NCBI RefSeq assembly: GCF_008000775.2
Contig: NZ_CP042905.2
Span: forward strand, 1,590,001-1,622,000
Direction: 5' to 3'
Length of the DNA stretch: 32,000 bases
Source: Promethearchaeum syntrophicum
GTDB lineage: Archaea > Asgardarchaeota > Lokiarchaeia > Sigyniarchaeales > Promethearchaeaceae
Shown here: positions 4,225 through 7,039 of the stretch, piece after piece
Layout: the number at the start of each line of letters is the position of its first letter
Position numbering within the stretch: position 1 is the stretch's first letter
Position numbers and translations under genes: made by a program
The notes under the pieces: generated by a model
Told to the model about the DNA's origin: nothing
The model's database searches: none
What the model saw: the letters and a program-made list of their open reading frames with translations, nothing else

Positions 4225-5847
4225 TTATATCATCTGGACAATAATGTTGAATTGCTTTATTTCAGATTCTCCTTGTTCTTTTCCAAAAGTGGTTAGAACT
4301 ACTTCATCAAGATTTTTAAGGTTAAAATCAGTTAATTTTCTATGTTGCGTGCGACCTCGTTCAAACAATGGATTGAAAATGAATTGCTTTGTTAGTGGAT
4401 TTGTTATAATCCAGTTTACATCATTTATTTTCTTATTAATTTCTCTGATAGCTTTGAAAAGCTCCCCCACAGTGGCATCAATAGGCACAACAACCGTGAT
4501 ATTTTCCTGTCCTTGTCGTGAACCACACCCTACACAGTCTTCACTTCGAGATATTGGAATTTGATCAAACAACCCATAGATGCCGCTGTAATTTAAATAT
4601 GGTGGGTTCATAATGGGTCCGACGGATGTTCCTGCTAGCAAAAATAATAATTTTGTTGCTTCTTGGGATTGGATAGATGCAATAATTGAGCTCACACTTT
4701 GAATTGCGGGGATTTTATTTCCTAAAATATTTTCCATATCTTCCAATGCGAATTCTCCTCCAAAAGTTTCAAAAATATTCTTTTTTAGAATTATTAGTTC
4801 ATTTTCTTCAATTTTTCCTTTCATTTCTGGGGGAATATTTTCGTCTAACACTCGAGCTCTTAGCTGGTCTAATTCTTTCTTGGCATATTCAAGCGTTTCT
4901 TTCATTTCTTCAATATTATCGTAATCAGGTTGGCGATCATATTTTTTGATAAACATTACTTCTCCCCGAATAGCGCAATGCTCCCTTGTTCTGGGAACAC
5001 CTTTCAAGGTACAAGCAGCAACTTGATTTTGGAGTGGAGGTGGAATTGGAACGACACATCTATAACAGGGAGTGCTTTGAAGATATTTTTCATATTTTAT
5101 GTAATTAGTTTCTACTTCCTTTTTAGCGCGCAGTTTCAGTTTTTCAAGAACTGGATTAATATTATTCATCTTGATATTTTCAATTTGTTGTTCGAGTGCC
5201 TCTATTGCTTTCTGAGCTCCAAAAAATTCTCCAAATTCTTCATTATCTTCATCTAGATTCCATAAATATTCATTAGCGAGGTCTTCAATAATTTTATCTT
5301 GATTTCCAAAAGAGAGAGGTTTTCCTGATACATCCTTCGCATTTTCTGGAATTATTACCTGTACGTGCCCATCAAAGCCAACAGTCCCCGCTTCGATCAA
5401 TGGGATCCCTAGCTTGAGGCAGAATTTATTCAAATCCATACGAGCTTGCACATTATCCAACGCAGCAATTACTATTTGACATTCTTTATATTTATCCATA
5501 GGAATTTGCTGCAAGGGGATGGTGAAAATCTCAATTTCCATAAACGGATTCATAAGTTTCAATCGTTCTGCACCTACATCCGCTTTAAACCGCCCTTCAT
5601 CTCCCTTATAGAACAGCATTTGTCGGGAGAGATTACTTGTTTCGATTCTATCCATATCACAGAGAATTAATTTTCCTATACCCGATAATGCCAAATCCTT
5701 CCCAACTTCGCACCCTAATGCTCCAACACCTGCAATAAATACTGTGCTATTTTTAATAACTTCTTGATCCCAGCCCTGAATTAATTTTTGGCGTTTAGTT
5801 CGTTCCTTTTCTTCTTGGGATAAAATTCGTTCATGTTTAATTTCCAT
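4225..5847 (-). CDS. Eukaryote-type ubiquitin-like-modifier activating enzyme (E1), UBA2/UBA3-like single chain
   Basis: 540 aa. Adenylation domain: IAGVGALGCEVGKDLALSGIGKLILCDMDRIETSNLSRQMLF (GxGxxG plus the NLxRQ motif of ThiF/MoeB/E1). CYRC...AACTLKGVPRTREHCAIRG parallels CYEC...GCTIRNTPSEPIHCIVWAK of UBA2 and PMCTIASMPRLPEHCIEY of UBA3. The catalytic Cys codon is at 5011..5013. A second zinc pair is CVGCGS. The C-terminal ~90 aa resemble a ubiquitin-fold (E2-recruiting) domain. Confidence 0.85.
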   Translation of the reverse strand: MEIKHERILSQEEKERTKRQKLIQGWDQEVIKNSTVFIAGVGALGCEVGKDLALSGIGKLILCDMDRIETSNLSRQMLFYKGDEGRFKADVGAERLKLMNPFMEIEIFTIPLQQIPMDKYKECQIVIAALDNVQARMDLNKFCLKLGIPLIEAGTVGFDGHVQVIIPENAKDVSGKPLSFGNQDKIIEDLANEYLWNLDEDNEEFGEFFGAQKAIEALEQQIENIKMNNINPVLEKLKLRAKKEVETNYIKYEKYLQSTPCYRCVVPIPPPLQNQVAACTLKGVPRTREHCAIRGEVMFIKKYDRQPDYDNIEEMKETLEYAKKELDQLRARVLDENIPPEMKGKIEENELIILKKNIFETFGGEFALEDMENILGNKIPAIQSVSSIIASIQSQEATKLLFLLAGTSVGPIMNPPYLNYSGIYGLFDQIPISRSEDCVGCGSRQGQENITVVVPIDATVGELFKAIREINKKINDVNWIITNPLTKQFIFNPLFERGRTQHRKLTDFNLKNLDEVVLTTFGKEQGESEIKQFNIIVQMI

Positions 5848-5950: not shown

Positions 5951-6388
5951 ATGAAAGACGAAATTAAACAAAAAATGATATTAATCTATTATATAAATGG
6001 AATAATATTTGCAACCATTTTCTTCTTTGTGTTTAAAAATATTTTCTTACCAGCCGCTATAGTGGTTTCTGTGTTTATTGCAGTAATTTTTACATCAATG
6101 GGATGGGGTATTTTTTATTTAAACACCTATTTTAAAATTAATCACCACCATCAAAAACCGAATTTATTAATGGTGCTTCTGTCATCGTTTATTTATTTAA
6201 TTCCTGCTGGAATTATATGCTATAACATTTTTACAAAGAAATATTCAAATATTATTGCAAATTTTCAGAAAGGAAATACTAAATATAAGAAGCAGATTAC
6301 CACTAATGGAATAAAATGTCAAAAATGCAATAATTTCAATATAGGGAATGGTAATTTCTGCATTCAATGTGGATATAAATTAAAATAA
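5951..6388 (+). CDS. Small polytopic membrane protein with C-terminal CX2CX10CX2C zinc finger (zinc_ribbon_2 / RanBP2-NZF-like spacing)
   Basis: 145 aa with three hydrophobic segments, then CQKCNNFNIGNGNFCIQC at 6317..6370. The gene is divergent from the E1 gene across a 103-bp spacer. Confidence 0.6.
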   Translation: MKDEIKQKMILIYYINGIIFATIFFFVFKNIFLPAAIVVSVFIAVIFTSMGWGIFYLNTYFKINHHHQKPNLLMVLLSSFIYLIPAGIICYNIFTKKYSNIIANFQKGNTKYKKQITTNGIKCQKCNNFNIGNGNFCIQCGYKLK

Positions 6389-6436: not shown

Positions 6437-7039
6437 TTAAAATCCTTGTTCTTTCAGATAATTAAAATTGAATTTATATGCTGAAATAAGTAAATCATTT
6501 GTTAAAACATGAACATTCTTTCCATCTAAAGAACTGATGATGTAAAAATTGGGAATATCTAATCGTTCTGCAAGTTCAATCATTGTTTCCATCGCTCTCT
6601 CTTCACGTTCTGGGGCAATTAAATCAGATTTCGTTGCCACTAACAATAATGGTGAACCCTTTGGGGCATTATCCTTCCAAATTGAAAACCATTCATCTAT
6701 ATAATTTGTAGTAGAGTAGCGAGTAATGTCATATAATAAAAGTCCGCAGACAGATCCTTTGCAGTAGCGAGGTAACATGAACCTGAATCGTTCTTCTCCG
6801 GCAAAATCCCAGATTTGGGCTTGAATTGGAATCTGTGGGACATCATCAGCATATTGGGAAGCAAATGGGTCGAAAATGGATGTCTTTAAAAGATGAAAAT
6901 CGACGCCGATTGTCATCTTCGTCGTCGAATCGAAAGCGCCGGTGATTATCCTTTTAGTAAGAGTGGTTTTTCCAACCCCTCCTTCACCTAAAATACAAAC
7001 TTTTAATACATTCTTTGAATTTCTTGCTCTAGCAACCAA
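6437..7039 (-). CDS. Rab-like small GTPase (Ras superfamily)
   Basis: 200 aa. G1 is GEGGVGKT. The G2/RabF-like segment is TIGVDF. G3 is WDFAGEERF (compare Rab WDTAGQERF). G4 is TKSD (compare NKxD). G5 is SSLDG. The start is TTG, preceded by a GAGGGAG Shine-Dalgarno-like element. There is no C-terminal Cys prenylation motif. Confidence 0.85.
   Translation of the reverse strand: MVARARNSKNVLKVCILGEGGVGKTTLTKRIITGAFDSTTKMTIGVDFHLLKTSIFDPFASQYADDVPQIPIQAQIWDFAGEERFRFMLPRYCKGSVCGLLLYDITRYSTTNYIDEWFSIWKDNAPKGSPLLLVATKSDLIAPEREERAMETMIELAERLDIPNFYIISSLDGKNVHVLTNDLLISAYKFNFNYLKEQGF

Follow-up and report, generated by a model that had tools for sequence, protein, structure and literature searches.

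A canonical-type E1 with two helical inserts, encoded far from its likely ubiquitin and E2 partners in a Promethearchaeum-type archaeon

The stretch of DNA analysed here, which we call the window, comprises 32,000 nucleotides of Promethearchaeum syntrophicum (positions 1590001-1622000 of a single 4.32-Mb contig). Its minus strand carries, at window positions 4225-5847, a gene for a 540-residue protein that an earlier reading of the letters alone (the original prediction) had described as a stand-alone, eukaryote-type E1 (activating enzyme). We conclude, with a probability of roughly 70%, that the gene encodes the canonical-type E1 of this Promethearchaeum-type Lokiarchaeial archaeon and that the enzyme, likely a homodimer, charges the 83-residue ubiquitin of the same genome and passes it to the genome's E2 (conjugating enzyme). 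Judged by sequence and predicted structure, this is an intact E1 and the only one of canonical type in the genome. Asgard ubiquitin systems serve the reconstruction of how eukaryotic ubiquitylation originated, and eukaryote-like E1, E2 and ubiquitin genes have already been reported from Asgard archaea; with enzymes of this kind already known, and one relative reconstituted, the gain here is one of detail and not of principle. A likely ubiquitin-E1-E2 trio is assigned in a genome where the three genes lie scattered, and an order-specific sub-family of E1 with about 120 extra residues is defined. Promethearchaeum is among the few cultured Asgard archaea, so the enzyme is open to experiment.

The open reading frame (ORF) runs uninterrupted from an ATG start to a TAA stop, and orthologues are found at E=0. 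All of its parts lie on the minus strand. The N-terminal half of the adenylation domain (residues 1-167, window 5347-5847) is recognised by the Pfam ThiF model (1e-52), by sequence matches in the PDB to the active adenylation domain of UBA1 and by invariant columns, and contains an arginine-finger motif at R19-Q20, the ATP loop GVGALGCE (40-47), DMDRIETSNLSRQ (64-76), K88 and D131. After a first insert, described below, come the first zinc CxxC (CYRC, residues 261-264, with C261 and C264), a proline-rich crossover segment, the putative catalytic Cys279 and C291 (4972-5073), all marked by invariant columns. Cys279 (codon 5011-5013) lies within AACTLKGVPRTREHCAIRG, 14 residues past Cys264, in the motif AACTLKG, and its segment aligns with the catalytic CTLKNFP of UBA1, with a weak local score. 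A predicted helical catalytic-Cys domain (residues 293-377, 4717-4971), which includes a second insert and was identified through structure searches that returned the Cys domains of UBA3 and SAE2, is followed by the C-terminal half of the adenylation domain (residues 378-445, 4513-4716) with the second zinc CxxC (C438 and C441, within CVGCGS at 438-443), assigned from Pfam, the orthologue alignment and VIA. The chain ends in a putative ubiquitin-fold domain (residues 446-540, 4228-4512), recognised by the order of strands and helices in the model and by VIA alignments. The hallmarks on which the original prediction had relied, namely the two CxxC motifs, the catalytic cysteine 14 residues past the first of them and the C-terminal ubiquitin-fold region, are thus all found where it had placed them. 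In an alignment of 33 orthologues (49-87% identity) GVGALGCE, D64, D66, NLSRQ, K88, D131 and R19-Q20 are invariant, and the CxxC cysteines and the Cys279 region are invariant both there and in an alignment with archaeal E1-like proteins of about 410 residues.

Comparison with solved structures separates the adenylation core from the remainder of the chain. Ranked by sequence, the active adenylation domains of UBA1, UBA7 and UBA6 come first, followed by UBA3 and SAE2 and then by MoeB and ThiF; a profile of the 33 orthologues gives E 5e-51 for UBA1, about 1e-36 for UBA3 and about 1e-31 for MoeB. The orthologue alignment was used to build an AlphaFold2 model (mean pLDDT 75.9), for which UBA3, SAE2, UBA6 and UBA1 are the top full-length matches in Foldseek. 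On re-alignment with VIA the fold scores Z 26-28, and over the adenylation core MoeB and ThiF fit as well as UBA3 does (Z 27-28). Superposition on MoeB/ThiF covers 226-233 residues, whereas beyond the core the model aligns with canonical E1s alone, over 352-377 residues and as far as residue 540 for UBA3 and SAE2, which bears out the proposed collinearity with UBA2 and UBA3. Alignments to UBA3, SAE2, UBA1, UBA6 and UBA7 extend to residue 539-540, and residues 446-540 show a predicted beta-grasp-like order of strands and helices (pLDDT 81-91); we presume from the model that this region is the ubiquitin-fold domain that recruits the E2. When the middle region (residues 163-382) was modelled separately (pLDDT 80.5), a wide VIA search of 48,161 chains with residues 271-377 returned the Cys domain of UBA3 as the best match (Z 6.8, root-mean-square deviation 2.3 A over 72 residues) and that of SAE2 at Z 5.1. 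Eukaryotic UBA3 clusters stand in the top rows of an ESM Atlas search with the middle region, and Foldseek with the same region gave no match at E<=0.001. The Z values are modest, yet they point to the same domain, the Cys domain of UBA3 and SAE2, in the place expected for it.

The putative partners of the enzyme are encoded elsewhere in the genome. A search for them found a single Pfam ubiquitin, of 83 residues and ending directly in Gly-Gly, at 4.218 Mb, and a single UBC-type (UQ_con) E2, of 172 residues with an HPN motif and a catalytic cysteine, at 0.500 Mb; with the E1 at 1.595 Mb, the three genes lie 1.1 to 2.6 Mb apart. RING also has two above-cut-off matches in the genome, and JAB has four. 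The Ufm1 Pfam family has no match in the genome, and neither has the UEV family, a result that is uninformative in that no control genome matched UEV either. Of the five ThiF loci present, the E1 alone combines a Cys domain with a ubiquitin-fold domain. The remaining four comprise a Cap2-like E2-E1 fusion with JAB, an operon of JAB and ThiF, and two compact ThiFs. The fusion (L006:574-2858, genome 0.614 Mb) is a 601-residue E2-like/E1 protein followed by a JAB gene, an arrangement resembling Cap2/Cap3, and the operon (L020:7972-11593, genome 0.455 Mb) is a run of four genes, unknown-JAB-ThiF-unknown, that adjoins an actin gene.

Each chain of the E1 has one adenylation domain. In MoeB and UBA1 the arginine of the finger motif reaches in trans into the ATP site of the partner. 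R19-Q20 aligns with LYSRQ of the inactive half of UBA1, and the active half of UBA1 has lost this arginine. No NAE1- or SAE1-like gene was identified among the ThiF loci of the genome, the four others being compact or belonging to other systems. Because the finger and a complete catalytic set are retained together in a single chain, and because no such partner gene was identified, we infer that the enzyme is a homodimer. Two copies would associate in the manner of MoeB to form two active sites, each subunit lending Arg19 to the other. Each would adenylate the C-terminal Gly-Gly of the 83-residue ubiquitin, take the ubiquitin as a thioester on Cys279 and hand it to the single UBC-type E2 docked on the ubiquitin-fold domain, and the last step of the transfer would fall to RING proteins from other loci. 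For an archaeal E1/E2/RING cascade of this type, reconstitution in vitro has been achieved (PMC5654768). Structure prediction of the E1 with the 83-residue ubiquitin gave a score of 0.07 (mark 0.32), which provides no verdict either way.

An exhaustive search for relatives, covering 1.84 billion representatives, placed the enzyme among archaeal proteins. The nearest relatives outside the family that carries the inserts are the archaeal E1-like proteins of about 410 residues (P0122-P0138), at 30-46% identity, and trees recover the insert family as a clade (99/97) adjoining them, with eukaryotic UBA1-like sequences on a long separate branch. On this sequence comparison the closest kin of the enzyme are these archaeal E1-likes and not any single eukaryotic E1. 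This qualifies the label of a eukaryote-type E1 given in the original prediction. In a sample of 150 further genomes from across the phylum, full-length E1s of the insert type are confined to the window's own order, where they occur in 2/2 genomes of one family (f1) and 24/25 of another (f2); the order is a genome-based (GTDB) grouping, and some of the related loci bear the NCBI names Thor-, Hermod-, Hod- or Odinarchaeota. Other families have E1-likes of 340-425 residues only, which match the adenylation domain. An orthologue of the E2 is present in 2/2 genomes of f1 and about 23/25 of f2, and an orthologue of the ubiquitin (at least 75% identical and with the same ...ATQAGG end) in 2/2 and 21/25, against 0/123 in the other families. 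Insert-type E1, E2 and ubiquitin thus have a common distribution, restricted to the window's own GTDB order. The coding sequence of the E1 in three relatives has a dN/dS of 0.09-0.12.

The original prediction had stressed the isolation of the gene, and within the window this is confirmed, as a Pfam scan of its neighbours found no ubiquitin, E2/UEV, RING or JAB (JAMM) gene. Gene order was then compared across 80 related loci from species-representative genomes. In 54 of these an E2 orthologue lies downstream of the E1, at a distance of 36 bp to 8.4 kb, mostly in the opposite orientation and past a gene for a HAD hydrolase; 53 of the linked E2s are 65-74% identical to the E2 of this genome (71% for L012) and one is 48% identical. 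At the loci nearest to the window (55-90% E1 identity) the E2 is not within reach, so that the separation of E1 from E2 happened within this sub-lineage. The scattering of the E1, E2 and ubiquitin genes is thus a lineage-specific rearrangement, and 'stand-alone' describes the gene order of this lineage and not the enzyme, which has partners elsewhere in its genome and an E2 beside it in most relatives. Separate regions for ubiquitin and ESCRT genes in Lokiarchaeota were described by Hatano et al., who used a general ThiF InterPro entry as the E1 marker (PMC9192718).

Other arrangements were seen at the related loci. In a clade at about 50% identity the gene directly upstream of the E1, in the same orientation, encodes a protein of about 2119 residues with MIT and TPR repeats (L009:1495-7854; 61/80 related loci), and the HAD hydrolase gene lies between E1 and E2; the giant MIT/TPR protein has only weak, repeat-level matches in the genome of the window. 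An E1-like of 416-425 residues without insert stands directly beside an E2 that is 40-45% identical to the E2 of this genome at G139:C1:295194-296940, and further such pairs occur at G102:C9, G107:C150, G119:C86, G130:C1 and G019:C7. These pairs come from the phylum's other families and, in some f2 genomes, constitute a second system; they represent the clustered arrangement known from the literature.

Several observations weigh against the assignment of an E1 that serves the 83-residue ubiquitin. The Pfam models for the accessory domains (UBA_E1_SCCH, E2_bind and E1_UFD) have no match in the protein at E<=1, ThiF being its only Pfam match, a single one with a large gap in it; SCCH, 4HB and UFD were matched by a control, the eukaryotic UBA1-like P0145. 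Of the profile searches suggested by the original prediction, that for ThiF was therefore positive and those for the accessory domains were not, so that the calls of a Cys domain and a ubiquitin-fold domain rest on the model (mean pLDDT 76) and, for the Cys domain, on Z values of 5-7. The common distribution of E1, E2 and ubiquitin should be counted as one evolutionary observation and not as many, because the genomes are close kin. Not one of the 80 related loci has a ubiquitin gene at 10 kb or less from the E1, and tblastn with the ubiquitin found nothing there even at E<1; with no linked ubiquitin gene, the pairing of the E1 with ubiquitin rests on co-distribution in one clade and on a single locus of a sister family of tandem E1s, described below. 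Finally, the genome has other possible substrates. It contains five genes of ThiS/MoaD type, and at L114:1152-1469 (genome 4,186,652-4,186,969), between ORFs of 156 and 163 residues, lies a 105-residue ORF ending in ...HSGGS, which is not among the Pfam ubiquitin matches of the genome and may be a second ubiquitin-like modifier, although it would need one residue removed.

These points bear most directly on the possibility that the protein is a thioester-forming E1 that acts on a modifier other than, or besides, the 83-residue ubiquitin, such as the product of the 105-residue ORF or a protein of ThiS/MoaD type. The lack of a linked ubiquitin gene at 80/80 related loci and the presence of other beta-grasp candidates would be explained in this way; we nevertheless consider it improbable, given that the ubiquitin orthologue shares the order-restricted distribution of E1 and E2, that a sister tandem E1 lies beside a ubiquitin orthologue, and that compact ThiF genes are the usual activators of carriers of ThiS, MoaD or SAMP type. 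Three compact ThiF genes are at hand for sulfur transfer, which is one reason why we give very little weight to an activator of sulfur carriers of MoeB/ThiF/UbaA type, working in cofactor synthesis or tRNA thiolation and not feeding an E2. It is true that the core superposes on MoeB/ThiF (Z 27-28) as well as on UBA3, and that NCBIfam ranks ThiF and MoeB models first, but these score 82-118 bits against cut-offs of 266-450, and a protein of 540 residues with Cys and ubiquitin-fold domains, neither of which MoeB/ThiF possess, with an invariant Cys279 and with an E2 as conserved neighbour in relatives fits such a role poorly. Least probable of all, and in our judgement very unlikely, is an inactive or scaffold protein that keeps the E1 fold without catalysis. 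Nothing specific speaks for it except the unusual inserts adjoining the crossover segment, and it is at odds with the invariance of the ATP-binding, zinc and catalytic residues across orthologues of 49-87% identity and with the dN/dS of 0.09-0.12 in three relatives.

Two helical inserts distinguish the enzyme. Insert 1 is the acidic insertion of about 90 residues noticed in the original prediction, and it maps exactly to residues 168-258 (window 5074-5346), as judged from alignments, models and composition. It has 19 acidic (D/E) and 12 basic (K/R) residues and three predicted helices, at 183-196, 203-247 and 249-257. The second of these, of about 45 residues, has a pLDDT of 90-96 in the sub-model against 52-73 in the full model, which fits a confident helix whose placement against the body of the enzyme is uncertain. 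Sequence matches to UBA1 and UBA3 break off at about residue 170-173, and in the wide VIA search insert 1 found nothing beyond generic long helices and coiled coils (Z<5), for which reason no fold is assigned to it. The insert is present in 33/33 aligned orthologues (49-87% identity), with invariant or near-invariant positions at W196, Y208, I215, L218, E219, I222, I230 and P232, and this conservation excludes the artefact of assembly or frameshift that would have explained it away. Insert 2 (residues 331-362, window 4762-4857), of about 30 residues, lies inside the Cys domain and is without counterpart in the relatives of about 410 residues. As these relatives share the arrangement of elements but have nothing that corresponds to residues 168-258 and about 331-362, the family can be described as an archaeal E1-like core with two helical inserts, and the sequence comparisons indicate that both inserts are additions that arose within this archaeal order. 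As to their function, an arm serving to strengthen or regulate the dimer and a surface on which a partner docks are the likelier options.

The sister family of tandem E1s comprises about 21 Asgard proteins of 730-878 residues with two ThiF domains (P0121, with relatives P0391-P0410). In the N-terminal copy the Arg-Gln finger is kept and the ATP motif is degenerate; the C-terminal copy, which is without the helical insert, has retained ATP motifs, catalytic cysteine and ubiquitin-fold domain. The halves of eukaryotic UBA1 show the same division of labour. In P0121 (L113:1291-3693), which has 800 residues, the C-terminal half is 59% identical to residues 25-171 of the E1 described here, and its gene is preceded, at about 700 bp, by a ubiquitin gene (L113:351-608) whose product is 78% identical to the ubiquitin of this genome. 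Whether the tandem family lost the insert or never had it is not decided by an approximately unbiased test (p 0.19).

The inserts and the tandem family can be joined in a broader proposal, which we put forward tentatively and regard as rather unlikely to hold in full. According to it, the helical arm before the crossover would have a working role, as a clasp or regulator of the homodimer or as a docking site for the E2, an E3 or the giant TPR/MIT protein, and one archaeal order would preserve both the homodimeric and the fused, pseudo-heterodimeric state of a canonical E1. It should be noted that the relatives of about 410 residues presumably dimerise without the insert and that the covalently fused tandem family is likewise without it. 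If the proposal were true, the conserved inserts would define a structurally distinct sub-class of E1, and the two states within one Asgard order would be an independent replay of the step behind eukaryotic UBA1. In the literature that we searched, no description was found of these inserts or of Asgard tandem E1s.

Set beside known systems, the enzyme most resembles the E1-like protein of Candidatus Caldiarchaeum subterraneum and the archaeal E1-likes of about 410 residues, which likewise have, in a single chain, ThiF, a CxxC, a cysteine on a small domain, a second CxxC and a C-terminal ubiquitin-like domain; the C. subterraneum enzyme is taken together with this set, of which it may be a member. 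The proteins of about 410 residues differ in having neither insert 1 (about 90 residues) nor insert 2 (about 30 residues), and several are encoded directly beside an E2. The C. subterraneum genes form an operon of ubiquitin, E1, E2, RING and Rpn11 (PMC5654768), whereas here E1, E2 and ubiquitin genes are scattered. With UBA3 and SAE2/UBA2 the enzyme has in common the zinc site of two CxxC motifs, the CT..(G)P...HC motif, a small helical Cys domain and the ubiquitin-fold domain. However, UBA3 and SAE2 depend on a separate inactive subunit (NAE1 or SAE1) for the arginine finger, which the present enzyme has of its own in R19-Q20, and they have no insert before the first CxxC. The active adenylation domain of UBA1, UBA6 and UBA7 is the best sequence match among solved structures (profile E 5e-51), but these are proteins of about 1000 residues with tandem inactive and active domains, an FCCH and a large SCCH domain and no CxxC zinc site. 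MoeB and ThiF share the adenylation fold, the pairs of zinc CxxC motifs and the arginine-finger motif, and they are homodimers, the state that we propose here; they differ in being about 250 residues long, without a catalytic-Cys domain, a ubiquitin-fold domain or an E2 partner.

The tandem family and a short element found in relatives of the E1 gene are more unusual leads, and both lie outside the window. Three genomes of a single genus have an E1 orthologue that is interrupted by exactly 30 nt, between the GVGAL and GCE codons of the ATP loop (G019:C52:6522-6551, plus strand; G030:C178:567-596, plus strand; G117:C712:1612-1641, minus strand; loci L115-L120). The element, of which there is one copy per genome, contains two in-frame stops and a 9-bp hairpin with compensatory base changes between genomes, and is flanked by a direct repeat of UAAG. 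It is not a canonical bulge-helix-bulge. Since the ORF around it is otherwise intact, with a dN/dS of 0.09-0.12 at dS>1, the element is probably removed from the mRNA, perhaps as a mini-intron, or bypassed.

Within the window, the neighbours of the E1 gene by Pfam and position are two PPDK_N-like genes, a gene for a 145-residue membrane protein, and genes for a Ras/Roc GTPase, a type-ISP methyltransferase and eS30. On the upstream-numbered side a gap of 26 bp separates the end of the E1 gene from the stop codon of a PPDK_N-like gene that converges on it, and a spacer of 103 bp separates its start from the divergent gene for the 145-residue protein, an arrangement from which we infer that the E1 is transcribed alone, as a monocistronic unit. 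The 145-residue membrane protein (window 5951-6388, plus strand) has a C-terminal CxxC-x10-CxxC zinc ribbon and was considered as a linked ubiquitin receptor, an idea that was dropped, as Pfam recognises no family in the protein and tblastn at E<=1e-5 finds it at none of the related loci, not even the one whose E1 is 90% identical. Upstream of the E1 lies a Ras/Roc-type small GTPase gene (window 6437-7039, minus strand). Asgard genomes carry many genes of this type, so its recurrence as a neighbour could be due to chance and is not counted as a functional linkage. In Lokiarchaeum-like relatives (L037, L039, L044 and L046) such a gene precedes the E1 by 92-320 bp in the same orientation. The other clade has a GTPase of 32-35% identity about 9 kb upstream of the E1.

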